Shown here piece by piece: positions 11,218 to 28,782 of a stretch of DNA of 64,000 nt. The notes below the pieces were generated by a model. That model ran no database searches. It saw nothing but the letters and a program-made list of their open reading frames with translations, and was not told the origin of the DNA. Position 1 is the first letter of the stretch, and every line of letters starts with the position of its first letter. A program made the translations under genes and the position numbers. The DNA is from a virus (Duplodnaviria > Caudoviricetes), in IMG/VR virus record IMGVR_UViG_3300021426_000067, one strand, 5' to 3'.

Positions 11218-11553
11218 TTAATATAAAAGACCTAAATCCTTTGCGACTTCTTTCGCTTTCTCCCAGCAGAAATCATAATACTTATAAGGAAATTCATCCT
11301 CAATTTCCCCGATTGTATAAGGAACTCTGCAGACATAACCCCACGGATAAACATTGAATATGGGATACTCTTCATCGTTAATAGCTTCGCTGAAAATACT
11401 CCATAATCTATCTTCCAACCAAGGAGTATCTCCCCATCTTTCTTTTTCTTTTTCCCATGTTACTTCCGCTCTTTTCCAAGCCTTTTCAAGATTATCCTCA
11501 TTAATAATCAAGTCCCATGTTCTTACATTAGAACTAAACTGAAATGTTCTCAT
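11218..11553 (-). CDS. acidic hypothetical protein (paralog family A)
   Basis: EAINDEEYP motif; start MRTFQF. Confidence 0.55.
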   Translation of the reverse strand: MRTFQFSSNVRTWDLIINEDNLEKAWKRAEVTWEKEKERWGDTPWLEDRLWSIFSEAINDEEYPIFNVYPWGYVCRVPYTIGEIEDEFPYKYYDFCWEKAKEVAKDLGLLY

Positions 11554-11554
11554 T

Positions 11555-11806
11555 TTACACCATCCTTTTTGATTCATATCTTTTAAGTGTTTTTCCAAAG
11601 TATTCACAGATGTCTGCCCACTCTTCATCATCTTCCGCGATGTCCAGAAAGTCATCTTCTGTAGGCGCATCGGGGATAGCTACCATGAGCCAACTCATGT
11701 GAGCGGATTCATCATAAATATGTTCAAGGACATATTTGTTCATCTGTTTGAGCATTTCTACTCTTAAAGCGATTTTCTTTTCTCTTTCTTTTCTTACATC
11801 AAACAT
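11555..11806 (-). CDS. acidic hypothetical protein
   Basis: 83 aa, own promoter near 11855-11881. Confidence 0.6.
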   Translation of the reverse strand: MFDVRKEREKKIALRVEMLKQMNKYVLEHIYDESAHMSWLMVAIPDAPTEDDFLDIAEDDEEWADICEYFGKTLKRYESKRMV

Positions 11807-12030
11807 TTTTCTGTTTCCTTTCTTTTGTTTGTTTTCCTTACCTTGTAAATATAGTATAATATATTTTTTTTAAAATGTCAATAAAAAATGTTGCACAAAT
11901 TGCGGGAAATTTATTAATTAAAGTTTGTGCGGTTTTCCTATTGACAAAAATGCGGCAGGTATGATATAATGAAAACTCGGACAGGTGACCCAGGAAAGCG
12001 GTCCGAAATTTTCTTCCAGACCGCCTAACA

Positions 12031-12351
12031 TCAGGGGAGCAGACCCCAGCTTCTAAGATATTCTGCAACTGCATTTTCGCATTTGTCTGCTACTTTAGTT
12101 CCATAATAACCATCAACTTCACGAATATCCCATCTATCTCCATCAATCAGAAAATAATCGGTTTTCGCACCATAATAAGGATAATAAAGAGTATCACCAA
12201 AATTATCTTCAAGGATTTCGTCAGTTTCCTTTTCATTCGGCCAGTTATCATCAGCTGTATATCTTGCGATAATTTTTTTCCATGTAGTGATTACTGCCTC
12301 AGTATCAATTTCAATATCATGTTCAATAACTTCTCTGTAATGGATTTTCAT
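12031..12351 (-). CDS. acidic hypothetical protein (paralog family A)
   Basis: HYREVIEHDIEID, FLIDGD. Confidence 0.6.
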   Translation of the reverse strand: MKIHYREVIEHDIEIDTEAVITTWKKIIARYTADDNWPNEKETDEILEDNFGDTLYYPYYGAKTDYFLIDGDRWDIREVDGYYGTKVADKCENAVAEYLRSWGLLP

Positions 12352-12552
12352 TGTTTACCCCCTTATAAAGCATAAGTTTCAATCTTACCAGCATCACAAT
12401 ATTTATCAACTACCACAGGGTCACTGATATCTAATTCATCATATCCCTCATCTGAAAGCATCCTTTTGGCTTCCTCTAAATTGTGGGCATAGCAACCCCA
12501 TGTCCATGTTCCCGAAAATTCAAAATAGCACTCTTTCATTTTTCACACCTCT

Positions 12553-12810
12553 TTAATACCTAAACTCACCGATAACTGCCACACCGCAAAAGTCCTCTTC
12601 ATCAGGGTCATCAGGATTATTATAGAACAGCATTTCCCATTCTACTTCATCCCATGTCATCGCCCTAAAGTTATCAAGGTCGATGAACAACTTATTTCCC
12701 CGACCATCCTCAGTTAAGATGAACGGTCTCAGAGAGTGATTGAAATGGAACATTACAGGCGGAAAGTAGTTGGTCTTAACAGTGATAATCTTTTCATTCA
12801 ATTCATTCAT
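12553..12810 (-). CDS. hypothetical protein
   Basis: GAGGTG RBS before MNELNEK. Confidence 0.55.
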   Translation of the reverse strand: MNELNEKIITVKTNYFPPVMFHFNHSLRPFILTEDGRGNKLFIDLDNFRAMTWDEVEWEMLFYNNPDDPDEEDFCGVAVIGEFRY

Positions 12811-13279
12811 GTTGCACCTCTTTCTTAGTGGTTGCTTTCCTCTTGACAATTATTATTATAGCAGACAGGTATGATTTTGTCAATAGTTAATATTCAAAAT
12901 TTTCTAACCATTCTCTAAATTTTTTAAGAGGATATAAATTTTTCCAAAAAACCCTTTTTACTCTATGAGGTGAACATTGTAAGGAAGTTGCAATTGAATA
13001 AAATATATCATAATCTTCCCAATACCTAAAATATTCACGCTGAGAAATGAATAAATAAATATAGGCTTCAATTTGTTTTTCTAACACTATTTTCTTTTGT
13101 TTTGTCATTCTTTTTTCCTCCTGACAATTATTATTATAGCAAATTATAGGAAAAATACAAGAGGGAATATTACACAAAATAGCGGCGGAAAATTTGTTGA
13201 TCTTGCACATTGACAAAATGGCGGTGCGTAGTGGAAGATTACGCACCGCTACCTTAAAAAAGATAGTGGTGCTTTTTGG

Positions 13280-13480
13280 TTACTCGAAAGGACGCCAATT
13301 AGTAGGCTCAGGCGGAGGCGTCAATTCCCAATTACAAGGAGCATCAAAAATATTAGGATTATTAACAAGACATTTATCTGCATAATCAGAGTAAAAAGGG
13401 CAACCAGAACAATCTTTTTGATTTTCGCAGATACGACGAATTAAATCCAATGCTGAATAAATATCTTTTTCAGTAAACAT
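13280..13480 (-). CDS. Cys-rich small protein
   Basis: CENQKDCSGCPF..C..PCNW; similar to 13491-13688. Confidence 0.55.
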   Translation of the reverse strand: MFTEKDIYSALDLIRRICENQKDCSGCPFYSDYADKCLVNNPNIFDAPCNWELTPPPEPTNWRPFE

Positions 13481-13490
13481 TTTTTCTCCT

Positions 13491-13688
13491 TTACCATTTA
13501 AATGCTTTCCAAGGCTCAAAATTAAATTCCCAATCTCTGGGGATTTTTTTAATAGCACATGTTACATATCCCTGTGCATCTTTCTTTCCTCGAAGAGGAC
13601 ATTCACTGCAACAACGATGCTCTTCACAAGTTTCCTGTAAAGTTACAAGAGCCTGCATGATTTTTTCTCTATCCATTTTTACCACCAC
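13491..13688 (-). CDS. Cys-rich small protein
   Basis: CEEHRCCSECPL..C..PRDW. Confidence 0.55.
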   Translation of the reverse strand: MVVKMDREKIMQALVTLQETCEEHRCCSECPLRGKKDAQGYVTCAIKKIPRDWEFNFEPWKAFKW

Positions 13689-13924
13689 CCTTCAAAAATT
13701 TCAATACCAAATTGCGCTAATTCATAGTTGTGAAAAGGTAATATCATCTTACTTGCACATTCCCAAATCCACGCAGGAATTTGATTCTCTCTATCAATAA
13801 AATCACAAGTCTTAAAGTCTGAGAAAAGAAACACGCTGTCAGGATGTTTAGTAGATGCGCCCCAACACTCTAATACAGTTTCATGGTCACTAATTCTGGA
13901 ATAAAGTTTATACATTTTTATCAC
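13679..13924 (-). CDS. hypothetical protein
   Basis: 81 aa in operon-like cluster. Confidence 0.5.
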   Translation of the reverse strand: MIKMYKLYSRISDHETVLECWGASTKHPDSVFLFSDFKTCDFIDRENQIPAWIWECASKMILPFHNYELAQFGIEIFEGWW

Positions 13925-14109
13925 CCCTCTTTTACAGGTTCCATACTAATCTTCCAAAGTTTTTCGTTACCAAACATTGAAGGTTTCATAAGAATCTCTA
14001 CTGTTTTCACTGCTTCTGAAAGGTCAAAAGGGTCAGAGACTAAGATTTCTCTTTCAGTATAACTGTCCTTTAAATCAAGTCGCTCTCTTAAACATACTTT
14101 CCATTTCAT
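13921..14109 (-). CDS. hypothetical protein
   Basis: GAGAGGAG RBS, promoter near 14143-14171. Confidence 0.55.
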   Translation of the reverse strand: MKWKVCLRERLDLKDSYTEREILVSDPFDLSEAVKTVEILMKPSMFGNEKLWKISMEPVKEG

Positions 14110-14347
14110 TTTTATTTATTCTCCTCTCTTGTTGTTAAATAAATTATAATATAAATTTTGGGAAAAATCAATAGGGGAATATTGCACAAGAAATTCATTT
14201 AAAAATTGTGCAATCTGTATATTGACAAAATGACGGGCTGGCGACCTTAGAAGGCGGCCCGTCCAGGCGGTTTTAGTAAAAATAATGAAAAAATGAGCCA
14301 ATTTTTGTTATTTTTTAACAAAAATTGGCTCAAAACAGGAGAAAATG

Positions 14348-14752
14348 TCAGTTTTCTTTAGTTTTTTTAGTTCTCTGTTTGATTAAATCGAGTTTGTAGT
14401 GATTTTCACCGACATTAAACTCAATAATCTTGGATTTATTAGTGATTTCAGCAGGATAGCCAGCATTTGTCAGACAATTTGCCAACATTTCAATCAATTT
14501 TTCCTTTTCTACATCAGGTTTGCGCTCACGAACCACCTTTTTTCTGGGGGCATCTGCTTTAGCTTCACGATTGATTTTATTGACTTTTGCCTTTTTTGTG
14601 AGTTCCTCTACCTCTTCATTGGTCTGAAAGTCATTATCTTCAAGCCACATCTGGACAGCTTCCTCACGGGTAATGTCAAGCAGTTTCATGTTGTTTTCGA
14701 TTTCCGCATCAGGGATACGGACAACTTTACCATTTTCAAGTGTGTAATTCAT
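14348..14752 (-). CDS. hypothetical phage protein
   Basis: 134 aa, GAGAGGAG RBS, own promoter. Confidence 0.65.
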   Translation of the reverse strand: MNYTLENGKVVRIPDAEIENNMKLLDITREEAVQMWLEDNDFQTNEEVEELTKKAKVNKINREAKADAPRKKVVRERKPDVEKEKLIEMLANCLTNAGYPAEITNKSKIIEFNVGENHYKLDLIKQRTKKTKEN

Positions 14753-14858
14753 TTTGATTTCTCCTCTCTCATTTGATAAGTCTATTATATACTATCCGTA
14801 TCCCCTTGTCAAGTCTTTTTATCGGGTCGGGGATAATTTTTTATCCCCGACCCTTACC

Positions 14859-15215
14859 TCAAGCGATAGCGAAATAAGGGGTCTGCTTAACCTTAGTTCT
14901 AACAACCTTTTTTGCGCTAACAAGGTCAGTCAGCAGGCGAGCAATCCGCTGGTTGCTCAGGTCTGCAAGAGCAGGAATACCATTCTGAATCTCCTTGATG
15001 TTCATAGGCTTATCCGCATCGGTCAGGAAAATCAGGATGTCATCCTTGAAACCAATGTTCTCAAGCTGTGTTGCAGTAGGCTTACGAGGAGTAGCACTCT
15101 TCTTGTCAAGCAGGTCAACCTGATGGTCAACGAACGCAACAAGGTCAGGATTGTCAATAACGATAGCACGAATCTCAGCAAAATACTCTCTTTTAGTCTT
15201 ATTCATAGTAAACAC
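14859..15215 (-). CDS. winged-helix-like DNA-binding protein (paralog B1)
   Basis: LSNQRIARLLTDLV..KKVVRT..KQTPYF; close paralog of 18203-18574. Confidence 0.6.
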   Translation of the reverse strand: MFTMNKTKREYFAEIRAIVIDNPDLVAFVDHQVDLLDKKSATPRKPTATQLENIGFKDDILIFLTDADKPMNIKEIQNGIPALADLSNQRIARLLTDLVSAKKVVRTKVKQTPYFAIA

Positions 15216-15551
15216 CTCTTTCTTTCTTAAAAATTAACTTTTTTTATCTTACATATTTATTATATCACATTTTTTTAAAACTGTCAACAGTTTTTTTTCT
15301 TTCGGTAAGATTTTTTGTTTCCACAGCTGATTGTTTCTTTCCCTTACCTTGTATACTTATTATAATAAAAATTTTTAAAAAAAGCAATATCGGAATATTG
15401 TACAAATTATGGGATCCGCAGGTTTTAAATTTTGTTGAAATTTCCTATTGACAAAAAGTGCAGGATATGGTATAATGAAAATTTCCCGCCGAGCCGATGG
15501 TCGGCGGGCCAGGGAATTACCCTAACCCGCCAAATTTGTCAAGGGGATTTT

Positions 15552-15974
15552 TTAAAAAACATAAATTCTGTTATCTTCGTATTCAGCGTAGAAATACATG
15601 TTGTTATCTTCTTCCCATGTAATCGTTCCGCAGGAACTCAAAGTATCGTCAAAGCATTTCCCGGCTTTTGCTCTTTCTAAAATGCCAGCAGGAACAGCGT
15701 CTCTTCTGGTTAAATTAGGAAATCTTAAAATAATATTGTTTTTCTGATCGAGGTCAACATACCCAAGAACCATGCCGGATTCTACAGCTTCATCATATTC
15801 TTTTACGCACTCAAAAGAATTATCTCTTTTAAGCTCCCACACTTCGAACTGATAATCAATGTCATGGGTTCGGTAATAGGCTAACCAATCGTTAGTCATA
15901 GTAATGGGGGTGCGGTCAGCATCGCATTCCCACTGGTCATCTAATACATCGCATTTCATAATTAAATATCTCAT
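15552..15974 (-). CDS. hypothetical acidic protein
   Basis: 140 aa, GAGGT RBS. Confidence 0.6.
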   Translation of the reverse strand: MRYLIMKCDVLDDQWECDADRTPITMTNDWLAYYRTHDIDYQFEVWELKRDNSFECVKEYDEAVESGMVLGYVDLDQKNNIILRFPNLTRRDAVPAGILERAKAGKCFDDTLSSCGTITWEEDNNMYFYAEYEDNRIYVF

Positions 15975-16007
15975 TTTATTTACCTCTTTTCAATGGGCGG
16001 TGGTTCT

Positions 16008-16718
16008 TTACAGAGCCACCTTGTTCTGATAAGCGTGAAAAGCAGGCTGAGGGATTTTCCACGGCATGTGAACAATTGTTCTGGTCATTTTCTGGTGAGT
16101 GGCGATACACTTGACGAAAATATGAACCTCAATGATTGCATCTTCAAGAGCCGTATGGGATTCAATAAAATCCATGTTCTTAACAAGATGACGATATGCA
16201 ACCTCGGCGGATGTTCGGCAGTTGCCACATTCAGACCGCCAATCGTTCTCAACCGCATCCTTGAAGAAAGAACGTCTGTTCAGAACTGTCTGACAAGCCA
16301 TATGCCATGTATCCCATACAACCGCATCTTCAGGAAAGAATGTCTGTTCTTTATCAAACTGGGTCAGATGCTTTAATGTGCTATTCAGTGCGTTTACATC
16401 AAATTTTGCATTGTAGGCGATAATTGCCTTGACTTTATACTGTCTCATAAGGTCGAGCATTTCGTTGCGGATTTTCCAAAAACTGGAAACAACGAACATA
16501 TTGTCTTTAATGCCCTGCCGATAAAGCGGAATCTTATCAGCGTAATAAGCTGTTTTCATCTTCTTCCACTCGCCATAGAAGATTTCACGGACAACGTAGG
16601 AACGCTTCTCAAAAATGTTACCTGCATTATCATGGATGCAGTAGCCGATGTCATATACAAGCGGATTACCAAAGCCACCGCAAGTTTCAGTATCAAGGGT
16701 TAAGTAAGTGAATTTCAT
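16008..16718 (-). CDS. DEDDh (DnaQ-like) 3'-5' exonuclease
   Basis: LDTET, AYNAKFD, HTALED motifs. Confidence 0.85.
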   Translation of the reverse strand: MKFTYLTLDTETCGGFGNPLVYDIGYCIHDNAGNIFEKRSYVVREIFYGEWKKMKTAYYADKIPLYRQGIKDNMFVVSSFWKIRNEMLDLMRQYKVKAIIAYNAKFDVNALNSTLKHLTQFDKEQTFFPEDAVVWDTWHMACQTVLNRRSFFKDAVENDWRSECGNCRTSAEVAYRHLVKNMDFIESHTALEDAIIEVHIFVKCIATHQKMTRTIVHMPWKIPQPAFHAYQNKVAL

Positions 16719-17031
16719 GTTGCTTTTGTTCTCCTCTCTTTATCTTATGTACTTATTATATACTATGTTCAGCACTTTGTCAAGCACTTTTTTAAGATTT
16801 TTTTGGTGTGTCAGGTGGGCTTGCCCTCCTGACAATTATTATTATAAGGGATAGGGAATAAGAAGTCAACAGGTAGATCTGCACAAATTATGGGAAATTA
16901 GGGGTTTGATTTTTGTTCAAATTGTCTATTGACAAAAAGCCGAGCGGTGTGGTATAATGATTTTCCGGCACATGAGGAGCGTGTGCCGGGCGATGAGTTT
17001 GCACCCACCGCCCATTTTGTCAAGAATTATT

Positions 17032-17244
17032 TTACATATTTTCAGGTTTTGTTACATTGGGGTCATCCCAAATAGTGCCGTCTACGATCTGTGTGTAGGT
17101 TCTCACTTCTTTAGCTCCCACTCGATAAATCATAGCATAAACAGTAGGGGCATAAATATGAGTATGTTCAATCAATTTAATGATTAACATATTTTTAATA
17201 TCATTTTTGAAGTCGTGAATAGCATCGAAAATAGTATAATCCAT
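17032..17244 (-). CDS. hypothetical protein
   Basis: 70 aa, GGGG RBS. Confidence 0.45.
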   Translation of the reverse strand: MDYTIFDAIHDFKNDIKNMLIIKLIEHTHIYAPTVYAMIYRVGAKEVRTYTQIVDGTIWDDPNVTKPENM

Positions 17245-17396
17245 TTTTATTCCCCCTTTACAAACATAACAATATTATAGGCTAAAAACCCGAACACGCC
17301 TACAAGGACAATAGGTGGTAATACTGCAGTAGAAAATGTTACAAAACTCATTTTAGTTTCTCCTCTCTTGTTTTCTTTTAATATAATAATTATACC

Positions 17397-17801
17397 TTAT
17401 TTTGTATTGATTGTCAAGCCTTTTTCTTTTAAATATTGAATAGCTTTATTCGCATCATGCCATTTTAAAACTTCGGCAATAGACATATTTCTTTTTCTTG
17501 TAGACGACTTAATGGTAACGTTAAGAGGCGCTTTCCATTCTTTAATATCCCATGTATTGCGATTAAAAAGAGAACAATTATACCATGAAATCACTCTTCC
17601 CTTTTTATTGCTACGGTAAATACTAAAAGGTAACATCATTCCGCAAGTAGGATAGACAAAATCTAAATTTTCCCAATCAAGGTCGGTGCTACAGTTTAAG
17701 TCTGGAGCGCTATCTTCATCAATTAAAATTGCTGTACTATCACCACCCATAAATTTATCATTGTGATAAGTTTCGAAAGATAAAGTGTAAAATTCTAACA
17801 T
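17397..17801 (-). CDS. hypothetical protein
   Basis: AGGAG RBS before MLEFYTL. Confidence 0.55.
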   Translation of the reverse strand: MLEFYTLSFETYHNDKFMGGDSTAILIDEDSAPDLNCSTDLDWENLDFVYPTCGMMLPFSIYRSNKKGRVISWYNCSLFNRNTWDIKEWKAPLNVTIKSSTRKRNMSIAEVLKWHDANKAIQYLKEKGLTINTK

Positions 17802-18048
17802 TTTTTTATTCTCCTTTCTTGACAATATTATAATATCATATCTCTAAAAGAAAAACAATGTACAAATTGCACAAAATTGCGGGAAGATCATTATTAAAAA
17901 TTATTTTCAAAAATCTCTTGACAAAAAGTGCGGGGTGTAGTATAATGGAATTGGCGTCCTGGTGCTGCAAGTAAGCGGGACGCCAAATAAAAAAAAAGGG
18001 GGGCGGTTTTAAACCGCCCCAGAGAAAGGGAACAAAAAAGGAGGAAAA

Positions 18049-18122
18049 CGACCATGATGGGACTTGAACCCACAATCTTTTGGGAGACAACCAACTGCTT
18101 TCGCCAATTAAGCTACACGGCC
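18049..18122 (-). tRNA. tRNA-Asp(GTC), degenerate
   Basis: GGCCGTG acceptor, TAGCTTAATTGGCGAAAGC D arm, TTGG-TTGTCTC-CCAA anticodon arm, GTGGG-TTCAAGT-CCCAT T arm, G73; no encoded CCA. Confidence 0.7.
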
Positions 18123-18202
18123 AGATAAAGGTGGCGGTTTTAAGGGTTGACCGCCAACCCATTTCAATATTCAGTTTTTAAGTAGTGAGGTACTCAGACC
18201 TC

Positions 18203-18574
18203 TCAGGCTTCAACGTCCTCTTCTGCGCCCAGAGCGTAGTGAGGGGTCTTGCCAACGTAAGTCCTTGCGACCTTTTTAGCTTTCCGCAGGTCAGCAAGCA
18301 GGCGAGCAATACGCTGATTGGTCAGACCCTCGAGGGCAGGAACCAGAGCGACCAGTTCCTTGATGTTGACAGGCTTGTCAGCGTCCGCCAGAGCAACAAG
18401 AATGTCGTTCTTGAAGCCGATGTTCTCAATCTGCGTAGCAGTAGGCTTCCGCTCTGCGGTCTTTTTCTTGTCAAGCAGGTCGACCTCATGGTCGACAAAG
18501 GCGACAAGGTCAGCGTTGTCGATAACCAGTTCACGGATTTCTGCGAAGTATTCTCTCTTAGTCTTGTTTGCCAT
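18203..18574 (-). CDS. winged-helix-like DNA-binding protein (paralog B2)
   Basis: KTKREYFAEIR..KPTATQIENIGFK..LTNQRIARLL. Confidence 0.6.
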   Translation of the reverse strand: MANKTKREYFAEIRELVIDNADLVAFVDHEVDLLDKKKTAERKPTATQIENIGFKNDILVALADADKPVNIKELVALVPALEGLTNQRIARLLADLRKAKKVARTYVGKTPHYALGAEEDVEA

Positions 18575-19012
18575 AATGTAACACCTCTTTCTTTCTTTTG
18601 ATTTGCTTTGTTTTCTTTACCTTACATATTTATTGTATCATATTTTTTTTAGGTTGTCAAGACTTTTTTTAACTTTTTTTTGAAGTTGTTTTTCTTGACT
18701 TCCTTTACCTTATGTATTTATTATATCATAAGGTTTTTTATTTGTCAAGGTTTTTTTTAGAATTTTTAAAAACTTTTTTTTGAAGTTTTTTCTTTCTTCC
18801 CTTACCTTGTATATTTATTATACTAAATTTTTTTAAAAGATGCAAGTCAAAATATCAGGTGAAAATTGGGAAAAATTTATGCAAGATCACGAGAAGAAAA
18901 TGCTTGACAAAAAAGGTGCGGATGTGGTATAATGGAATTTTCGCGCCTGCCCGATGGTTGGCGCGCCAGTACAAAAGGTGGTGAGATTATTATCTCACCA
19001 CCCCCTATATTA

Positions 19013-19528
19013 TCACATAGTAGCATCCCAAGCATAATCAATGACGCAGACCTTGCCACGGCGATAACCAACATTATTATAATGCAGGTCGTAGATGTTA
19101 TCATAGAGCCATTCAAGCTCATAATCCGTGCAGGTTCTCTGCCAGCACTTATCATCATCGCCGACCCCATTAACACGGGGCATTACAGTGCAGGTCAGCC
19201 CATTGATATAAAGCAGAGTAGGTCTTGCCAGAAGATATGCCATACCTGCTCTCTCCGCCATGTCATATACCTGCGCTTCTGTCTCGCAGTTGCCTGCTCT
19301 GCCATTCGCCCATTCGCGCTCTCTGTTCTTGTAATCAAATTTGATTACATAATCAGACCTGATAATGACAATCCGGCTGACCCCATTGGAGTACCTCAGC
19401 TTCCTTTTGTGACAGTCGTTATATGCCTTAATAACTTCCTTGAAATCGGACAGGTAGTAGCAATCTTCAAACAGCCTTGCCAGAATCTTTGCAAACTTGA
19501 TACCTCTTTCCTCATAAGTAGTTTTCAT
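19013..19528 (-). CDS. minimal protein-kinase-like fold protein
   Basis: GVSRIV, YVIKF, DLHYNNVG and VIDYA motifs. Confidence 0.6.
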   Translation of the reverse strand: MKTTYEERGIKFAKILARLFEDCYYLSDFKEVIKAYNDCHKRKLRYSNGVSRIVIIRSDYVIKFDYKNREREWANGRAGNCETEAQVYDMAERAGMAYLLARPTLLYINGLTCTVMPRVNGVGDDDKCWQRTCTDYELEWLYDNIYDLHYNNVGYRRGKVCVIDYAWDATM

Positions 19529-19764
19529 CTTTACACCTCTTTCTTTGTGCTTTGTTTCCCTTTTGATAATACAAGTATATCAAATGAATACTTATTTGTC
19601 AAATGAAATATTACATAAAATACAGGAAAAATAGTTGATATTTTTTGTTACATTTTCCCATTGACAAAAAGTGCGGCGCGTGGTATAATAGTGATGGCGC
19701 GCTGGTGACGCAAGAAAGCGGCGCGCCATTAAGACGCGCCTTAGAGAAAGGGGATAAAAGGGGA

Positions 19765-20283
19765 TTACCAATTTTTCTTAACGATGACAGGAGCATGACA
19801 GCAATTGCTGTGATACTGATGAATGTTCTGCAGGGTTTTGCTGTTACGAGTACGACCACCAAGGAAGTCTCCGCACTTTTCGCAGTACATGGTATACCGA
19901 TAAACAGCATCCATTTTAACGTCTGGCTTTCTTTCAAAGTTAAAGAATTGAGTACCATCATTAGTTGTGCCAATTTGAGCGCAATAGAACTTGAAAGTAG
20001 CATCGTGACCATGATTTTCTCTTGTTTTGTAAGTAGCTACATAGTGGGCACACTCGTGCATAATGACATTTTTAATACACTCATCAGTGCCAGTTTTCAG
20101 CATCATCTGGCTGAACTCCATTTTATAAGGACGCCAACCTGTGCGAGCTGTAGCTCGAATAAAGCATCTACCTAAAGTCTGTGTTAAAGCAGGATTGATA
20201 AGAACAGGAGCCTGAAATTCAACTCCGCATTTTGCACAATATTCAATACAAAGGGTCTTAATAATTTCAACAGTCCATTCCAT
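19765..20283 (-). CDS. SprT-like zinc metalloprotease
   Basis: HECAH (HExxH), HGHDATFK, C-terminal CEKC Zn ribbon. Confidence 0.8.
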   Translation of the reverse strand: MEWTVEIIKTLCIEYCAKCGVEFQAPVLINPALTQTLGRCFIRATARTGWRPYKMEFSQMMLKTGTDECIKNVIMHECAHYVATYKTRENHGHDATFKFYCAQIGTTNDGTQFFNFERKPDVKMDAVYRYTMYCEKCGDFLGGRTRNSKTLQNIHQYHSNCCHAPVIVKKNW

Positions 20284-20964
20284 GATTTTTACCTCTCTTT
20301 TGATTTGTTATTTCCTTTCTGTAATTATATATTAACATACCTTGTAAAGAATGTCAAATGAAATATTACACAAAATATGGGATCTTTAAAAGAAAAAGTT
20401 TATTCAAATTGTCTATTGATAAAAAGTGCGGGACATGATATAATGGTGAGAGCGGACTGGTGCGCCTGGCGGCGGTCCGAAAAAAGCTAACACCTTTTGA
20501 GTGTTAGCTTCCATTTTTATTCTATTTCATATTCCTCTATGTGATTCTGAGGACCATTCGGGTCTGCCCCACAATAATAATATTCATGTTCATTGAGGGT
20601 ATCTGTGACATAGGCGGCTTTTTCTCTTGAATCGTATACCCCCTTAATACGATCTTCTTTGCATACAATATATACTTTCATTTTTTTTAATTCTCCTCCA
20701 TTTCCATACGATGTAACTCTCTTTCAAAGAGAACCTGCATTATCAACCACATTTCAAGGCACATTATTCTACCCCCTTGTGATACTCAAGGATGCTCAGC
20801 AGAACATCCTCGGCGACACCTTCTTCAATCATTCTGGCGAACCTGATAACAGTGACATGCTCAAAACCGAACATGTAAATCATTTCAGTTAACATTTCTT
20901 CTTTTGTCATGATTTTTCTCCTCTCTTGATTATGTACTTATTATATCAGGTTCGCGCAGGTTTG

Positions 20965-21153
20965 TCAACCCTCAAATTCTACAATATCATCAATATCTAT
21001 TTCATCAATAGTGATATACGGATCATCCTCATTCCAATCGACTCCTAATTTCCCCATGTTCACAAACCACTTGATAAGGTTTGCATCTCGTTCAGTTACA
21101 GCCATTGTAAAATCCTCGACAGGGGTTTCTACTTTATAAATTCTTTTTTTCAT
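20965..21153 (-). CDS. small acidic hypothetical protein
   Basis: GAGAGGT RBS, own promoter. Confidence 0.55.
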   Translation of the reverse strand: MKKRIYKVETPVEDFTMAVTERDANLIKWFVNMGKLGVDWNEDDPYITIDEIDIDDIVEFEG

Positions 21154-21886
21154 TTTTATTACCTCTCTTTTATTGTATCTTTATTATATCAGGTTCGCGT
21201 GGGTTTGTCAACCCTTAAATTCGAAAACTTTTTCAATGGGTTCTAACCATAATTCATCTTCAGTACGGGTTACTTCATTAATAAACCATGTAAGAAAAAT
21301 ATACTCTTTATTGGAGAGTTTCACTGTAACAGTTTCATCGTATATTGTGTTATGTAATGTATAATATTTCTTTTCTTCCATTTTGATTACCTCTTTTTTC
21401 TTTATTATATCATCAATATTTAATTATGTCAAGAGGACAAAGATTTTTATTTGTTGGGGGAGTGGAAGATAGAGCGTGCGCACGAAACTTTATTTTCCTA
21501 CTCTCAAGGACTGTATCTTTACATATCCCCTTGACAATTATTAGTATATCACATTATAGGAAAAAAACAATGTACAAATTGCACAAAAATTTACTGAAAA
21601 AATTGTGCAGATCGTATAATAAACAGATTGACGGCTCGACGCCACAGGAATCGAGCCGTCAGCTTAAACCAACGGCTCTTTTCTGAGAAAGGGAACAAAA
21701 ACCTAAAAAAGGGTAATGTCATAAACCTGCTTGCCCGCAAATGCAGACGCTACACATAAGGAGTTAATTACAACGCTCGTCTCTACGATTACAACAGTAT
21801 GGTCAACACAAGACAGAATATACTTTTTCATAATTTTTTCTCCTTTTCTTTTGATAATATAATTATAATATAATATTTATAAAATG

Positions 21887-22189
21887 TCAAGGGGATTTTT
21901 TAATTCTAATAGTAAAATCATCGCCCCCAAAAAAGTTCATAGGGAAATCTTCAAAAAATTCTTTAACCCCATATTTCCAAAGATACCGAAAAAAAGTAAA
22001 AAGCATAACAGGAATAAAGAAAATTATTTTTAATGTCCGCCTGGGAGTGATTGCAACTACTGTATACTCATGCTCTTCTTTTTTAATATAAAATTTAAAA
22101 AGCAAAGGGAGCAGGAAAGGAATTTTAACAAAAGGTTCATTAGTATTTCCCATCATAGCGCAGAACTCTTTAAAAGAAATTTGTCTCAT
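21887..22189 (-). CDS. hypothetical membrane protein
   Basis: hydrophobic segments, AGGAG RBS. Confidence 0.5.
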   Translation of the reverse strand: MRQISFKEFCAMMGNTNEPFVKIPFLLPLLFKFYIKKEEHEYTVVAITPRRTLKIIFFIPVMLFTFFRYLWKYGVKEFFEDFPMNFFGGDDFTIRIKKSP

Positions 22190-22249
22190 TTATTTTCTCC
22201 TTTTTTATTTTATTATACAGGATACTTATGGTTTTGTCAAGGGGATTTT

Positions 22250-22693
22250 TTAAATCCCCTTGAGGATTTCTAAAATATTGTGAACATCATAGGCGATTCC
22301 TGTCCATGTTGTTCTATTCTTTTCTTCATCATCGAAAAGAATATCATTTTCAGTGGCGAATGTCTGTTTGGGAGTTCCATAGGTTTCAATGTGGATTTCA
22401 TCAAAGTGAACGCTTGCCAGATGCTTTTTAAGCCAATCCATTTTAGCTTTTGTGACAGCTTCATCGTATTCAGGTTTGCTGTCACGAGCCAGCCAGCTGA
22501 TAATGCCGATGCGGAATCCAGTTTTCTGAAGCCTATTAAGGATTCTGGCAAGAGAAGCCATTCTCAGCAGGGGTTCTGCATGGATGTAAGGATAAGGATT
22601 TTCAGCGTGGAGATAATCAAGCCAACCCTCAACACCATAGAAGTTTGCTAAAGTACCGTCCATATCGAAATAAATAGTAGTCATTTTTATCAC
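22250..22693 (-). CDS. HAD-superfamily 5'(3')-deoxyribonucleotidase-like protein
   Basis: YFDMDGT motif I, ILFDD motif IV. Confidence 0.8.
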   Translation of the reverse strand: MIKMTTIYFDMDGTLANFYGVEGWLDYLHAENPYPYIHAEPLLRMASLARILNRLQKTGFRIGIISWLARDSKPEYDEAVTKAKMDWLKKHLASVHFDEIHIETYGTPKQTFATENDILFDDEEKNRTTWTGIAYDVHNILEILKGI

Positions 22694-23339
22694 CTCTCTC
22701 TGTTTGCCTTTCTGTAATTATATATTAGCACACTTTACATAGGCTGTCAAATAAAAAATGTAACAAAAATGGGAAAAAATATCGCCGCTTTTTTGTTACA
22801 TTTTCCTATTGACAAAAGTGCGGGTGATGTGGTATAATGATCAGCGCGTCGGCCCGATGGTTGACGCGGCGATAAAAAGGGCGGTGCGAACCTGACTATG
22901 AATGTGGTTCCTGACCGCCCTATAAATTTAGTATTTGATTTCCCGTGCGGGCAGGAGCCAGTGGCCAGTTGGCTCCCTTTTTGTGCCCTCGTACCAGTTT
23001 CTGTCATCGCGCCGTACGTAGCGCTCTACTTTTTCGCTTGGTCAGCATTATCTTTCTCCTCTCTTGGCTTGATTGTCTCGCTACAGGAGACCGCCCATTT
23101 AGATTTAAAATTTAGAATTTAGAAATTAATTATAGTGGTTTCTTTTGGCGATGCTCTAATCATTTTTCTCACCTCTCTTTGATGATTTAATTATATCAGG
23201 TTCAGAAGCTATTGTCAAGAGGTTTTTTAACTTTTTCTTTCAAGCGTCCTACCTGAGCGGTAACCCTAAGCAAGACGCTTGCCCAGTAAGTTGTTTTCCT
23301 CTTTTGTTATATTTATTATATCTTATTTTTATTTAGTTG

Positions 23340-23621
23340 TCAACCCCTTTCTTTAATTTTTTCTAAACAATCTCTATCATCAAAAACTTTGCTAAACATC
23401 ATGTACTCTACTGCTTCTAAATGCTGAAGAATACCGCTGTTAGGATATTTTTTTTTCATTTTATCAAACCATTGTTTGATTTCTTTTTCTGTATATTTTT
23501 TATTTTCAATAGTTTCATTGACACATTTCTGTACTTTTCTTAATTCAGAGGGGGTCATACTGGAAAAATATGACTTTAAATCAGAAAAAGTTTTGATTTC
23601 TACTGTCTTACCATAATCCAT
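23340..23621 (-). CDS. hypothetical protein (C-terminal half paralogous to 26431-26592)
   Basis: MKKKYPNS..LEAVEYMMF..FDDRDCL. Confidence 0.55.
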   Translation of the reverse strand: MDYGKTVEIKTFSDLKSYFSSMTPSELRKVQKCVNETIENKKYTEKEIKQWFDKMKKKYPNSGILQHLEAVEYMMFSKVFDDRDCLEKIKERG

Positions 23622-23967
23622 AATATTTTTCCTTTCTTTTAATCGGAAATTTTTTTATTTTTCCTGCGGACTTCTTTTTTTGCCCACTTTTTCATATCCT
23701 TTTTAGATTTCATATCCTGCCAGTATCCGTGAGTAACGGTGGTCTTTTTGTAATCTGCTCTTTTCATTTGTGGTAGCTCCTTTCTGTAATTATATGATAC
23801 TACATCGGGCGGAGAATGTCAAATGGAATATTGCACAAATTATGGGATCTGGTTCACAGAAATGTTTATGCAAATTGCCTATTGACAAATGGGCAGCACC
23901 TGTGGTATAATGGAAACGCGCCAGACCCGACAGCTGGCGCGGCGATGAAAAAAAGGTAAGATTTCTC

Positions 23968-24513
23968 TTACCTTTCTCCCTTAAAACCCCATTTGTAGCA
24001 GAGAGGAGCATCTTTTTTCAAATCAATATCAGGGTACTTCTTTAAAATCTCCCTTGTATCAAATCCTCTTGAAGTGATGACTGCAAATCCATGAGGCGTT
24101 CTGTGGATTGCGTACTTAATTTCCGCAGGGATTTCTTTAATAAAAGCTAAAGTAGTATTTAAATCAGTATCACAATCAAAGAGCCATTTTTTCTCCAGCT
24201 TATTTTCTACTTTTGAAGCGAGAGAAACGACTTTGTTTTCAATCTGTTCCAGCTTCCAATTAGTAGGAGTGATAGCTTCATCAATGAGGAACTTTGCCAA
24301 TTCTTTTTTGACTTTAGTTTCATCTACTCTATTGATAGAAACATAAAATCTGGAAAACTCGCCATCCATGCCCTTTTCAATAAAATCTTTGAACTTTTCA
24401 TCAAGCTCTTTATTGAGGAAGCCCTCTGTTAAGAAACTTTTAGAACGAGGTTTAAATCCCTCAATATTTGCATTGTCTTTATTACGGCTGATAAAATTAA
24501 TTACGTAAGTCAT
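23968..24513 (-). CDS. hypothetical protein, possible AEP/primase-like catalytic motifs
   Basis: WLFDCD (hhhDxD) and RTPHGFAV. Confidence 0.45.
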   Translation of the reverse strand: MTYVINFISRNKDNANIEGFKPRSKSFLTEGFLNKELDEKFKDFIEKGMDGEFSRFYVSINRVDETKVKKELAKFLIDEAITPTNWKLEQIENKVVSLASKVENKLEKKWLFDCDTDLNTTLAFIKEIPAEIKYAIHRTPHGFAVITSRGFDTREILKKYPDIDLKKDAPLCYKWGFKGER

Positions 24514-24699
24514 TTTTTATTTCCTCCTGACAATTATTATTATATATTAAATTAATAAAAAAGTCAAATAAAATATTGCATAAAAAACAGGATCTATAAA
24601 GTCTCATCTTTGTTAGATTTTTCTATTGACAAAAAGTGCATTATATAGGGGAATAGACTTGGCGCGCTGTCACCGTTCGAAGACAGCGCGCCAATAAAA

Positions 24700-24937
24700 A
24701 AAGTAGGTTTCAGCCTTTCGAGCATCCCCCTACTTTATTGCGTCCATTCTTGCCACCCCCGGAGTTTCAGACGCGCTCCGTTGCTGCCACCACATTTGTA
24801 TTCCGCACAGCAAGATTGTAGGCGTGCGGTCGTGGTCTTTATCAGCAGGACTTATCCGGGCAACTTGCGCCCTAAGAACCGCACCTTCAGCCTGCATCCC
24901 GACCTTCGTGGGTTTGGGGTTTTCCTTCCCTTTGATG
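24700..24937 (-). ncRNA. candidate ~240 nt structured ncRNA
   Basis: TTGACA-N17-TATAAT promoter at 24942-24971, GC-rich multi-stem body without RBS-led ORF, hairpin plus U-tract end. Confidence 0.5.
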
Positions 24938-24984
24938 ATTTAATTATATCAGGCTTCCGCCGGATTGTCAAGAGTTTTTTGAAA

Positions 24985-25090
24985 AAAAGTTGGGCTTTTT
25001 TGCGAGGGTGTTCGCACGGTTGACTTCCTTTTCTCGCCCTAACTACCAATCCCCTTAGTAGTGCATTGACGTGTTCCTCACTTTCTATAT
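24985..25090 (-). ncRNA. candidate ~100 nt ncRNA
   Basis: promoter TTGACA..TACAAT at 25093-25121, internal hairpins, U-tract end, no convincing ORF. Confidence 0.4.
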
Positions 25091-25137
25091 CTATTGTAGC
25101 ACGGAATCACTGGATTGTCAAGAGTTTTTTGAAAAAA

Positions 25138-25234
25138 TGTAAGAGCAGGAGTTGAACCTGTAGGTGGCTACTGGTGCACGCTTCACCACCGATACTGTTA
25201 GGTATCACCTACTTCCGTTCGGTTTCCCCTTACA
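25138..25234 (-). ncRNA. tRNA-like ncRNA (acceptor stem plus T arm, no canonical D/anticodon arms)
   Basis: TGTAAGG/TCTTACA 7 bp stem abutting CAGG-TTCAACT-CCTG; internal GTAGGTG/CACCTAC helix; own promoter. Confidence 0.5.
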
Positions 25235-25877
25235 AGTATATATTACCATACCCCGCCTGCAGGGTCAAGGGGTATTTAATAAAAAAATTGCACAAAATCG
25301 GGAATCGAAAAGTATTAGTTTTTGTTCAATTTTCCTATTGACAAAAGAGGCTGGGGTGTGTTATACTGAAAAACCCGCCGAATCGACAGTCGGCGGGCCA
25401 GCAAGAGCAACCAAAAAAGAGAGGGTTACCCCTCTCTTTTATCAAATCAGATGACCACGGTTTGTGTACAGGTTGTAGATGTAGGTGTAACCATCAGCCA
25501 TGTCAACGTAGACCTCGCCAGCATAAAGGCTGATTTCCTCGATAGGCCGTCTATCCTTTTTGGGGATGGCATTTAAAATCTGCTGAAGTTTTGTGAAATC
25601 TACATAACCTAATGTTTCCATTTTTTATCTCCTCTCTTGAATCTATATTAATTGTACTACAGGGGGTTGAGGTTGTCAACCCCTTATTTTAAAGAACTAC
25701 ATATTTTTCAGTCTGATAAAAGGTATCAATGGTAGGCGTTTCTAACTCATCAAAATGGTTATAGTAGCCACCGCTGTCACGATGCTGGATTACGACTTCT
25801 AAATCTAATGCGTTATTCTGTTTTGCCCACTCATATAAGTCTTTAATTGTCATTTTTAATCTCCTCTTTTACGGTTT

Positions 25878-26045
25878 TTAGAAATTAAGTGTAACCACAC
25901 CGCCGATTTCACGAGCAACCTCATCAGCCCTCTCTTTGGTTTCATATGCGCCCCAGAACCAGAGTTCTCCATCGCAGAGTCTGGAAACGATGAACATATA
26001 TCTCTTTGCGTAGTCAGGCAGGTTTCTTACATTGATTTTGGTCAT
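25878..26045 (-). CDS. small protein (paralog family C)
   Basis: RLCDGELWFWGAYETKERADEVAREIGG; 55 aa, not in ORF track. Confidence 0.6.
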   Translation of the reverse strand: MTKINVRNLPDYAKRYMFIVSRLCDGELWFWGAYETKERADEVAREIGGVVTLNF

Positions 26046-26266
26046 TTTTTTGTACCCCTTTCGTGGTAGTTATTGGTTATGTCCCTTACAAGTATTATAA
26101 TACTATACCTGCGTAGAAATGTCAAGGGGGTTTTGCAAATTTTCTGGAAAAATTTTACTGATCAGCGTGCGCCTAAATCCAGCTGATTTTTTCGCTGATC
26201 ATGGGTGAAAACATTTGGCGGTGCGCTCCCCGTCGCCCGCGCACCGCCAAATAAAAAAAGTGGGAC

Positions 26267-26362
26267 TTAATCGTCCCACTCATCAGAGGTCATCGCCTCT
26301 TCAAGGGCCTCGGCCTCGAATGCCTCGGTCATGTAATACTCTTCCGCCACCCACATTCCCAT
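26267..26362 (-). CDS. 31 aa highly acidic micropeptide
   Basis: GAGAGGAG RBS and own promoter; MGMWVAEEYYMTEAFEAEALEEAMTSDEWDD. Confidence 0.55.
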   Translation of the reverse strand: MGMWVAEEYYMTEAFEAEALEEAMTSDEWDD

Positions 26363-26430
26363 GTCGCTCTCCTCTCTTGTTGAGTGCTTTCCTTTAACTG
26401 TCTTTATTATACTACAGTGAATTGGGGTTG

Positions 26431-26592
26431 TCAACCCATTTCTTTTATTTTTTTCAAACAATCTCTATCATCAAAAGTATTGTTAAACATCATGTACTCT
26501 ACTGCTTCTAAGCACTGAAAAAGATTGCTGTTAGGATACTTTTTTTTCATTTCAGCAAACCATTCTTTGAGTTCATTTTCTGTATAGGTCAT
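26431..26592 (-). CDS. small protein paralogous to 23340-23621
   Basis: MTYTENELKEWFAEMKKKYPNS. Confidence 0.6.
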   Translation of the reverse strand: MTYTENELKEWFAEMKKKYPNSNLFQCLEAVEYMMFNNTFDDRDCLKKIKEMG

Positions 26593-26606
26593 TTTTTACT
26601 CTCCTT

Positions 26607-26723
26607 TTAATAAAATCCATCATTTTCTTCTGTATCTTCATCTTCTGGATCATCTTCATCTTCAATGAGATTGTTCAAAATGTAGTATGCTTTTTTAATA
26701 TAATCTTCTCCATAGAAATTCAT
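26607..26723 (-). CDS. 38 aa highly acidic micropeptide
   Basis: AGAGG RBS; ..IEDEDDPEDEDTEENDGFY. Confidence 0.5.
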   Translation of the reverse strand: MNFYGEDYIKKAYYILNNLIEDEDDPEDEDTEENDGFY

Positions 26724-26822
26724 TGTTTTTTCCTCTCTTGTTATATGTTTTCCTTTAACTGTATTTAGTATATCAAATTAAAATCGGATTGTCAAGGGTT
26801 TTTTTGGAAAATGTCAGGAAAA

Positions 26823-27245
26823 TTAATTCCTGACTTTTTCCAAAAGTGCTTTTTTATTTGCAAGCTGTTTTTCAAGTTCTGCAATTTCTCTTTCAAGTCT
26901 TGTAATCTGTGCCTTGCGTGCTTTGGCTTTCCGATATTCTTCTACGGTCATGCCTGCGTCCTGCGCTTTCCGCATTTCAGTAGCAAGTCTCTTTTCTTTT
27001 CTGGCTTCAGCTTTTTCCTGCCGCGCCTGATAGGCGGCTTCCCTTGCGGCGTCCTCGGCGGCGATTTCTTCAACAGTCTTAATGTAACCCTCATTGACGG
27101 TGTAACCTACGGCGGCGGCTTTTGCGGCTGCTTCTTCAGCAGTTTCTGCCTGAACCTCAACGACTTCAACGTCGTAGTTATAGGCACCGCCCATATATGC
27201 GATATAATCAGCGTGTTTCATTCTCTCAACTCTATAAGTGTTCAT
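26823..27245 (-). CDS. Ala/Glu-rich coiled-coil protein
   Basis: 140 aa, own promoter. Confidence 0.65.
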   Translation of the reverse strand: MNTYRVERMKHADYIAYMGGAYNYDVEVVEVQAETAEEAAAKAAAVGYTVNEGYIKTVEEIAAEDAAREAAYQARQEKAEARKEKRLATEMRKAQDAGMTVEEYRKAKARKAQITRLEREIAELEKQLANKKALLEKVRN

Positions 27246-27362
27246 TTTATATTCCCCTTTCTATTTCCTTTCTGTAATTATATGATACTACATTTTTTTT
27301 AATTTGTCAAATACTTTTTTTGATAAGGAGCAGGCAGGTTCTGCCCGCCCCCGCCATATGGA

Positions 27363-27575
27363 TTAGATTATAGGAGTGGCAAGACCGCCAATCTCACATG
27401 CGACCTCAAAAGCCCTGTCCATGGTTTCATATGCACCATAGAACCATGCCTCATCGTCACAAATACGGAATGTGATGAACGCTTCATGAAGAGCATATGC
27501 AGGGACGTTCTGGATGCGCCATCCATTAGTCTCAATAGTGAAAACCTTGTTGTTCCAATCTTTGATAATAGTCAT
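27363..27575 (-). CDS. small protein (paralog family C)
   Basis: close copy of 28570-28782. Confidence 0.65.
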   Translation of the reverse strand: MTIIKDWNNKVFTIETNGWRIQNVPAYALHEAFITFRICDDEAWFYGAYETMDRAFEVACEIGGLATPII

Positions 27576-27953
27576 TGTTTTAATCCCCTTTCAAATTGTT
27601 GTTGTGTTCCCTTGACACTACCTATTATAAGGGCTACTATAATATAGTGCAATAGTCAAAGTATACAAATTTTCATGGCTTTATTGTACAAAACCACCAA
27701 AAAAATGAGGTTTTTGTAAACGATTTCACGAAAAACACGAAAAATTTTACGAAAACTTTACGAAACTATCGATCATTAGCTTACTGGCAAAATATACAAA
27801 AACCGTAGGCGGTTTTTGGTAGATCTGCTGAAAAGCAATTTCGTCACTTTTAACAATTACCGGATTGTATTTTTATATATTTTTTTATAAAATTAGTCTT
27901 GACAAACTGCGGTTATATGTGGTATAATTTTGCGGCCAGCAGCCGGTCGTTTA

Positions 27954-28224
27954 CTTTAGTCATTTAATGCTTTAGTGTACTAAAGCTAACAAACAAAACT
28001 CTAAGTTTTGACTATTAACTTCAATGCTTTAGTGCGTTAAAGTTAATAGTCAAAACTTAGAGTTTATGTTATTAACTTTAACACTTTAGCGCATTAAAGC
28101 TAACTTCAATACTTTAGTGCGCTAAAGTTAGCAACTAAAACTTGAAGTTTTGGCTATTAACTCTGACACTTTAGCGCGTTAAAGCAGATCAGGATCTGGA
28201 CTTTCGGGCTTTAACGCGCTAAAG
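27954..28224. repeat. array of CTTTA-N6-TAAAG palindromes with nested 26 bp perfect inverted repeat
   Basis: copies at 27970, 28027, 28084, 28112, 28169, 28209; IR AAACTCTAAGTTTTGACTATTAACTT spanning 27996-28065. Confidence 0.85.
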
Positions 28225-28333
28225 CATATGCGGTCAAGGATCTGGCTTTTTTTTGGCATAACGGAGCGGAAGCCTGAGGCGGCTCGCTCCCGAGCGCCCG
28301 CGAGCCGCCAATTTTTAGAGGTAAGGAAGAGGG

Positions 28334-28429
28334 TCACCCCTCTTCCTCTTCCAGGACCTCGGCAACCTCTGCCCAGATGGCATCCCAGCCGTATTCGTTA
28401 TATGCTACCTCAAGTGCTGTCATTTCCAT
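28334..28429 (-). CDS. 31 aa acidic micropeptide
   Basis: AAGGAG RBS, own promoter; MEMTALEVAYNEYGWDAIWAEVAEVLEEEEG. Confidence 0.55.
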   Translation of the reverse strand: MEMTALEVAYNEYGWDAIWAEVAEVLEEEEG

Positions 28430-28569
28430 GTTCGTTTCTCCTTTCTGTAGTGCTTTCCTTTAACTGTCTTTATTATAACAGGTGGTTACTGGATTGTCAA
28501 GTCTTTTTTTTTATTTTTTTTAGATTTTTTTGAGGGGCAGGCAGGTTCTACCTGCCCCTTGCCTATAGG

Positions 28570-28782
28570 TCACACTACCGGAGTAGCAAGACCACCGATT
28601 TCCTCGGCGACCTCGAGCGCCCTGTCCATGGTGTCATATGCACCGTAGAACCAGCAGGTATCATCGCAGATGCGGAATGTGATGAACCGTTCGGTCAAGG
28701 CATATGCCGGAACGTTCTGGATGCGCCAGCCGTTAGTGTCGATTGTGAAAACCTTGTCTTTCCAATTTCTTACGATTGTCAT
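28570..28782 (-). CDS. small protein (paralog family C)
   Basis: FRICDDTCWFYGAYDTMDRALEVAEEIGG. Confidence 0.65.
   Translation of the reverse strand: MTIVRNWKDKVFTIDTNGWRIQNVPAYALTERFITFRICDDTCWFYGAYDTMDRALEVAEEIGGLATPVV

Follow-up and report, generated by a model that had tools for sequence, protein, structure and literature searches.

What do the GC-rich hairpins that recur between the small early genes of a large uncultured phage do, and does their function reside in their loops? We addressed this in a 64,000-nucleotide stretch of DNA (the window), a portion of the phage genome in IMG/VR virus record IMGVR_UViG_3300021426_000067. Genes from approximately 1 to 34 kb in the window are on the - strand. 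Those from 11.9 to 31 kb are small and mostly unannotatable, and each has its own consensus promoter and ribosome site; we refer to these units as cassettes. An earlier note on this DNA had described ten hairpins in the cassette region, with variable, covarying stems and two conserved loop families (family 1 and family 2), and had taken them to be selected for binding a ligand. We found that hairpins are coupled to promoters, that these promoters consistently point against the genes, that pairing in the stems is under selection, that the loops show no extra conservation, and that the promoter-hairpin modules flank sites of cassette gain and loss.

Backward promoters and their hairpins

We scanned 11.8 to 31 kb for promoters, scoring matches out of 12 consensus positions. 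Fifteen sites on the + strand matched at 11 or 12 of the 12 positions, most of them with an extended -10. All 15 of these sigma-70-type promoters had a GC hairpin 5-10 nucleotides (nt) downstream of the -10 box. The mean minimum free energy of the first 45 nt was -16.8 kcal/mol, compared to -2.2 kcal/mol for 32 equally good promoters of - strand genes (Mann-Whitney p = 8e-8). The promoter directly ahead of the hairpins is the key context that was absent from the earlier note.

The backward promoter has a conserved GC-rich spacer. Back to back with it, ~65 bp away, is the next cassette's promoter, and an operator-like dyad separates the two. The spacer of the backward promoters from 11941 to 25367 holds GTGC, and the same core is found upstream in the arms of the dyad (TTGCAC...GTGCAA). 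GTGC in the spacer may be a third putative binding site, located inside the promoter.

The hairpins are shorter in five modules at 27.9-30.7 kb, which make up a second subtype. Among them, 29454 and 29993 each have a small hairpin that overlaps a larger terminator-like hairpin. At 29489-29525 and at 30028-30049, the small 5' hairpin shares bases with the larger one and a U tract follows, a predicted attenuator-like pair of mutually exclusive folds. A terminator-like site on the + strand comes ~5-25 nt past the hairpin in the modules at 20416, 29993, and 30673. RNAs from these promoters would be ~45-75 nt, as estimated from the coordinates. The -10 box has been lost from modules 13210 and 14222, and the hairpin at 26214 has no promoter.

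The modules in the window are listed here by position. The strains mentioned are strain-level relatives from a metagenome scan: L090 (98% identity to the window), L093 (97-98%), L091 (91-93%), and L092 (88%).

11941-12006, + strand: backward promoter (11941-11970; 12/12 promoter match) and family-1 hairpin, arms 11977-11982 and 12001-12006, loop 11983-12000; weak fold (z -0.8); cassette absent from strain L090
13210-13249, + strand: -35 box only, and hairpin of neither family, arms 13221-13230 and 13240-13249; compensatory U-A to C-G change in L092
14222-14263, + strand: -35 box only, and family-1 hairpin, arms 14232-14238 and 14257-14263; hairpin patch replaced in L092, with homologous flanks
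15448-15508, + strand: backward promoter and family-2 hairpin, arms 15485-15492 and 15501-15508; homology to relatives ends at the hairpin
16929-16988, + strand: backward promoter and hairpin with a different loop, arms 16964-16971 and 16981-16988 (promoter scan, fold)
17918-17986, + strand: backward promoter and family-1 hairpin, arms 17951-17959 and 17978-17986 (promoter scan, fold, sequence)
18904-18965, + strand: backward promoter and family-2 hairpin, arms 18942-18949 and 18958-18965; adjoins a paralog of the gene beside the 15448 module
19661-19729, + strand: backward promoter and family-1 hairpin, arms 19694-19702 and 19721-19729; strain variants include UGAU and a compensatory G-C to A-U change
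20416-20479, + strand: backward promoter and family-1 hairpin, arms 20453-20457 and 20475-20479, followed by a + strand terminator-like site at 20484-20510; leader and hairpin replaced in L091, with flanks ~95% identical
21617-21661, + strand: -10 box only, and hairpin, arms 21629-21639 and 21651-21661 (sequence, strain comparison)
22809-22868, + strand: backward promoter and family-2 hairpin, arms 22845-22852 and 22861-22868, with two G.U pairs (promoter scan, fold, sequence)
23882-23941, + strand: backward promoter and family-2 hairpin, arms 23917-23924 and 23934-23941 (promoter scan, fold, sequence)
24626-24694, + strand: degenerate promoter and long hairpin, arms 24659-24671 and 24682-24694 (sequence, strain comparison)
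25338-25397, + strand: backward promoter and family-2 hairpin, arms 25374-25381 and 25390-25397; same stem as 15485, different loop (promoter scan, fold, sequence)
26214-26251, + strand: GC hairpin of the same kind, no recognizable promoter (read from sequence)
27899-27945, + strand: second-subtype backward promoter and short hairpin, pointing into a palindrome array (promoter scan, fold)
28929-28980, + strand: second-subtype backward promoter and hairpin, 28964-28980 (promoter scan, fold)
29454-29525, + strand: second-subtype promoter and small hairpin (29489-29501) overlapping a larger hairpin (29496-29525), then a U tract (fold)
29993-30049, + strand: second-subtype promoter and small hairpin (30028-30040) overlapping a terminator-like palindrome (30034-30049) (promoter scan, fold)
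30673-30723, + strand: second-subtype promoter and hairpin, 30707-30723, with a + strand terminator after it at 30739-30764 (promoter scan)

The array thus contains at least ten further hairpins of the same kind outside both loop families (13221, 16964, 21629, 24659, 26214, and the five at 27.9-30.7 kb).

Similar modules are present in other uncultured phages. The -35/spacer word of the promoter was found at 31 IMG/VR loci. The same promoter and GC hairpin were present at 23 of these, and the other 8 were chance coding matches. With a second word, 43 further matches were obtained. In all, 65 loci yielded 132 unique units of promoter and hairpin; runs of six to ten units on the same strand were common. 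The module was not found in cultured phages or in GTDB genomes.

We judged the orientation of the genes around these units by purine content, as a test of open reading frame length was too ambiguous. For calibration, known - strand genes in the window had a purine content of 0.42 and + strand genes 0.52. In 81 unique units, both flanks were 0.43 purine on the promoter strand. None was above 0.53, and the orientation of the backward promoter is therefore invariably opposite to that of the genes. Downstream of most hairpins come an A run and then another hairpin, which together are the terminator of the neighboring gene read backwards; the A run, the complement of that terminator's U tract, came after 80 of the 132 hairpins. 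The module hairpins do not have the makeup of intrinsic terminators: of the 132, a U tract follows only 13 on the gene strand and 3 on the promoter strand, and a scan for terminators flagged just a few hairpins.

Several neighbors of the modules deserve mention. Two small - strand genes (14859-15215 and 18203-18574) encode paralogs of 118 and 123 amino acids that are 71% identical and have no Pfam family. In many related contigs, relatives of these proteins adjoin promoter-hairpin modules, and the protein is a candidate regulator of the module. A tRNA-Asp (GTC) gene (18048-18123, - strand) is located within the cassette array, and its own terminator abuts the 17951 hairpin. Directly downstream of the backward promoter at 27899 there are about six CTTTAG-type 16-bp palindromes (27954-28224). 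They might serve as an origin or as an array of protein-binding sites, with transcription from the 27899 promoter. The window also encodes a DNA polymerase III alpha of the SPbeta-YorL type (~40% identical to proteins of Enterococcus phages and SPbeta), NrdD, a Dda-like helicase, and portal and other virion proteins. There was no near match to the window among the cultured phages searched.

Stems and loops

As GC-rich stem-loops the hairpins are real, and selection has maintained their base pairing. All ten that had been described, loops and stems, are present in the sequence. We compared the folding of nine of them to that of shuffled sequences (15485 was outside that set). Eight of the nine folded better than the shuffles (z -2.6 to -4.9); the fold of the 11977 hairpin was weak (z -0.8). 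The 15485 hairpin is present in the fold of the 45 nt after its promoter. The word CCGATGG occurs three times in the 64 kb, always inside the loops of these hairpins.

Pairing has been kept while the stems changed. In the five family-1 sequences, 3 of 9 pairs were changed on both sides and 91% of cells were paired. With strain orthologs added, these values were 2 of 7 pairs and 96%. The two family-2-type sets had 5 of 10 pairs changed on both sides with 95% of cells paired (set A3) and 3 of 10 pairs with 97% of cells paired (set A2). In every case, 0 of 500 shuffles reached the score. When the registers of the stem alignments were slid, pairing fell to 25-55%. The sets are small, and those for family 2 were selected by loop pattern and are therefore informative on stems only. 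In another family-2 alignment chosen this way (A1), the invariant loop columns are circular, and we excluded them as evidence of conservation. We also compared 67 close pairs of hairpins from different contigs. Of the changes in their stems, 45 were compensatory, 21 were one-sided but left the pair intact, and 49 disrupted a pair. Compensatory changes were also seen between strains.

The earlier description of the stems as variable and covarying is correct in that pairing is kept through double-sided changes, but the stems are not unrelated: 4-5 of the 9 family-1 pairs are invariant when aligned from the loop. Recent duplication does not account for the families. The hairpins of a family are not recent copies because the flanks are equally diverged within and between families. 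Identity over 114 nt of flank was 57% among family-1 members, 53% among family-2 members, and 55% between the two.

The proposal that stems turn over while loops are retained did not hold. In the window, loop identity within the two families (0.68 and 0.69) equals the identity of the 5' arms (0.66 and 0.71). The hairpins at 11977 and 20453 share a stem, and their loops are only ~60% alike by our own count; those at 15485 and 25374 also share a stem, and their loops differ. In the 67 close pairs, 23% of loop positions differed versus 14% of stem positions. We also pooled 22 module comparisons between the window and the four strain-level relatives. Identity was 97.2% in the upstream/operator region, 95.4% in the promoter, 83.3% in the leader, 92.8% in the 5' arm, 90.5% in the loop, 93.9% in the 3' arm, and 92.8% in the next 100 nt. 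The loop is the least-kept part of the hairpin. Between strains, loops vary about as much as the downstream DNA or slightly more, and far more than the upstream DNA.

More distant comparisons gave a similar picture. Across relatives there are tens of loop types with no common motif, and in different phages very different hairpins are found beside one conserved gene family, that of the 118-amino-acid protein. The loop motif CGRNNG was not enriched across the clade (15 versus 10.2 expected, P = 0.07). We dropped GGA and Shine-Dalgarno-like loop words as candidates, as loop composition (G 38%, A 17%) accounts for them by a rough estimate. In IMG/VR, the family-1 loop pattern had only unrelated coding matches, none in a hairpin context. 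We looked for a kissing partner of the family-2 loop, and its complement is nowhere else in the window. Because the loops are no better kept than the stems and there is no clade-wide motif, the two families appear to be old paralog lineages spread by patch replacement, and not ligand sites. The earlier note had read the pattern as selection on a structured ligand, unlike terminators. Pairing is indeed selected, and the U-tract counts above show that these are not ordinary terminators, but the signature of a ligand is lacking, as the loops change more than the arms.

A T-box-like role, in which UGGU in the loops would bind the 3'-ACCA end of tRNA, was not supported. A cmscan search of 11800-31000 at E <= 5 found no T-box (RF00230) and no Rfam family on any hairpin. 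The only Rfam matches, at the gathering threshold and at E <= 5, were the tRNA-Asp gene and chance matches of microRNA models to the palindrome array. UGGU is not conserved: the same position in orthologs and paralogs reads UGAU, CGAG, AGGU, or UGGC. It is also partly paired: the position of its first U lies opposite a G and forms U.G in 8 rows and C-G in 1, and it is unpaired in 2. In 81 modules the downstream DNA codes on the opposite strand, and therefore there is no co-oriented gene for the hairpin to regulate. Candidates for an inner helix in the family-1 loops fall in different registers, and we therefore make no claim of one.

Cassette borders and patch replacement

We compared the window to L090, which is 98% identical elsewhere, and found four cassette-level differences (11225-11573, 11919-13090, 21192-21367, and 23344-23830). 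They comprise insertions, deletions, and one replacement, all about the size of a cassette, in two strains that otherwise match at 95-98%. Three or more of the four (11919-13090, 21192-21367, and 23344-23830) end in promoter/operator repeats, one with a 108-nt overlap. Such junctions are what would be expected from recombination between modules.

Smaller patches have also been exchanged. In L091 the leader and hairpin at 20445-20479 are replaced, and in L092 the hairpin at 14232-14263 is replaced; the flanks are 88-95% identical. A stretch of 14 nt is common to the L092 patch and the 17951 loop. These swaps between strains illustrate how loop types can move. In more distant relatives, homology to the window ends at the hairpin. 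Ends of homology were enriched 3-4 fold within 30-60 nt of hairpins, a comparison that is uncontrolled for intergenic DNA in general. With regard to integron attC sites (imperfect palindromes of 60-140 nt with conserved R/L boxes, near an integron integrase), the hairpins here are 24-37 nt with near-perfect stems, and the 30 larger open reading frames of the window that were scanned included no recombinase.

Proposed role and likeness to known systems

We favor, with slightly better than even confidence, a reading in which this is a boundary module similar to the PeSLs of T4-type phages and the hairpin is a sequence-tolerant 5' structural clamp on a cis-antisense or insulating transcript. The hairpin would be the first bases transcribed from a near-consensus sigma-70/sigmaA-type promoter that points against the local genes. 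This promoter, the dyad, and the cassette promoter together form a boundary module that is repeated between small early-gene cassettes. The stem, starting a few nt from the 5' end of the RNA, would shield the antisense RNA from 5'-end-dependent decay. We favor a clamp because 5'-terminal stem-loops protect RNA from this kind of decay, and so stabilize it (reviewed in PMC3997798). The stem and the polymerase at the backward promoter, which abuts the neighbor's terminator, may together insulate or damp the neighboring cassette. Damping could occur by convergent-transcription interference or by antisense pairing, directed against read-through or against the upstream gene. Interference between convergent promoters has been documented (PMC6593788, PMC5001618). 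The element itself is real and structure-selected, and its layout is a newly observed one for a known kind of phage regulatory cassette.

Several points weigh against the clamp. It takes the transcripts, their ends, and their effects on neighboring genes from DNA sequence. A promoter-strand terminator is missing after most hairpins, and therefore the RNA may be long, not short. Hairpins have been kept without a usable promoter in 13210, 14222, and 26214. The stems are nearly pure Watson-Crick, and G.U-type mismatches are not commoner than A.C-type (17 versus 18, and 4 versus 11). Changes at the strain level were 5 G.U-type versus 1 A.C-type by hand count, too few to decide the acting strand. 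A C.A mismatch, beside two apical C-G pairs, is conserved in hairpins of contigs L062, L064, L017, L027, and L052 (with CCCGGNGGA loops), and on the gene strand this is U.G. Lastly, a second promoter that faces the first across the hairpin is frequent in relatives, and a simple insulator fails to explain it. The -10 boxes of such facing promoters are ~40 bp apart (for example, L028 7012-7116; also in L054, L058, L043, L045, L010, L016, L019, and L060), and both RNAs would start in the same palindrome. The lack of a G.U excess, the C.A mismatch, and the facing promoters therefore keep roles at the level of DNA and in sense RNA alive as rivals.

If the palindromes act as DNA, then as cruciform or hairpin DNA they would signal cassette boundaries or recombination and promote the shuffling of early genes; the promoter would be incidental. 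The stems fit this, as they are near-perfect Watson-Crick palindromes with no excess of G.U on either strand. So do the ends of homology at and near hairpins, the hairpin patches swapped between strains, and the finding that crossovers in PeSLs of T4-type phages map in or beside the stem-loop (PMC2839356). However, insertions and deletions between strains are joined in the promoter/operator repeats and not in the hairpin, no recombinase was found among the 30 larger open reading frames of the window that were scanned, and the fixed 5-10 nt spacing from the promoter and the asymmetric loops point to a transcript. We consider a DNA-level role unlikely. We are similarly doubtful that the hairpins act in the sense (gene-strand) RNA, as second-line terminators, attenuators, or 3'-end protectors behind the cassette terminator, like the stem-loop of a PeSL. 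Here the location is suggestive: the hairpins are 2-4 nt past the U tract of the neighboring gene's terminator, 15485 and 25374 were called terminator-like on the - strand by a scan, and a GUUUUC run follows 11977 on that strand (read from the sequence, outside the scan list). The subfamily's conserved mismatch is U.G in this RNA, and hairpins persist where the backward promoter has decayed (13210 and 14222). Yet only 13 of 132 hairpins have a gene-strand U tract, most cassettes already have a canonical terminator, and a sense role leaves unexplained the constant attachment of a 12/12 promoter at a fixed distance.

It is improbable that the loops are ligand-binding surfaces, for a protein or for uncharged tRNA (whose 3' end would bind UGGU, as it does the bulge of the T-box antiterminator), with the stems as mere scaffolds. 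Binding would account for the strand asymmetry of the loops relative to the promoter (AGGA 12:0, CCCG 12:0, and GTGG 11:1 versus their reverse complements) and for lineage-specific loop types that recur on different stems. The family-1 pattern GGYG...GCG is kept even through patch replacement, and in 20453 a possible inner helix has two strain substitutions, each giving G.U. Loops nevertheless evolve faster than stems, at least five loop types are found in one phage, and no motif is clade-wide. Rfam gave no match to these hairpins, T-box included, UGGU varies among orthologs and its U behaves as paired, the family-1 inner helices are not in one register, and the family-1 pattern is missing from IMG/VR in a hairpin context. 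A related idea is that lineage-specific loop types such as GGYG...GCG are address tags for trans-acting phage or host factors, conceivably tRNA 3' ends, and that tiny antisense RNAs co-switch subsets of the early cassettes. We regard this as a long shot.

If the favored reading is correct, then in an entire clade of large uncultured phages, with contigs of 130-200 kb, almost every early-gene cassette carries a backward promoter whose transcript begins in a GC clamp. This would be a systematic, modular means to insulate or damp accessory genes and to shuffle them, and the PeSL idea would reach beyond T4-type phages to a group that is unrelated to them and has another layout. There is also a caution for the identification of RNA motifs: covarying stems topped by look-alike loops can result from old paralogy and patch conversion, with no ligand involved.

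The module resembles parts of several known systems. The family-1 hairpins at 17951 and 19694 can be drawn like a T-box antiterminator: the outer helix leads to a 5' bulge of 6 nt that begins with UGG, and a short GC helix comes next. Unlike T-boxes, the phage hairpins have no Stem I, specifier, competing terminator, downstream gene, or Rfam match. The 5'-terminal stabilizers of ompA, papA, and the aprE leader (PMC3997798) also have a stable stem a few nt from the 5' end, with a sequence that is free as long as it is paired. Those protect mRNAs, whereas the putative RNA here is antisense and has no open reading frame. In the cis-antisense and convergent-promoter systems of lambda (oop) and phage 186 (pR/pL) (PMC6593788, PMC5001618), a promoter likewise fires into the 3' end of an oncoming unit. 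Those are single regulatory sites. In contrast, almost every cassette border here has a backward promoter with a 5' GC hairpin, which makes at least 15 copies per genome.

The closest likeness is to the PeSLs of T4-type phages (Arbiol et al. 2010, PMC2839356; Comeau et al. 2014, PMC4122927). In both, a consensus host-type promoter is joined to a stable GC stem-loop. The composite is repeated in a plastic region, where it separates small accessory early genes, and its copies bound the insertions, deletions, and replacements by which close relatives gain, lose, and swap genes. The layouts differ. A PeSL has its stem-loop upstream of a gene-oriented promoter. Here the hairpin is downstream of a promoter that faces against the genes and would be its transcribed leader, and the gene has its forward promoter, a second and divergent one, ~65 bp away on the other side of the operator-like dyad. 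The phages differ as well: this one has a polymerase of the SPbeta-YorL type and is not T4-like.

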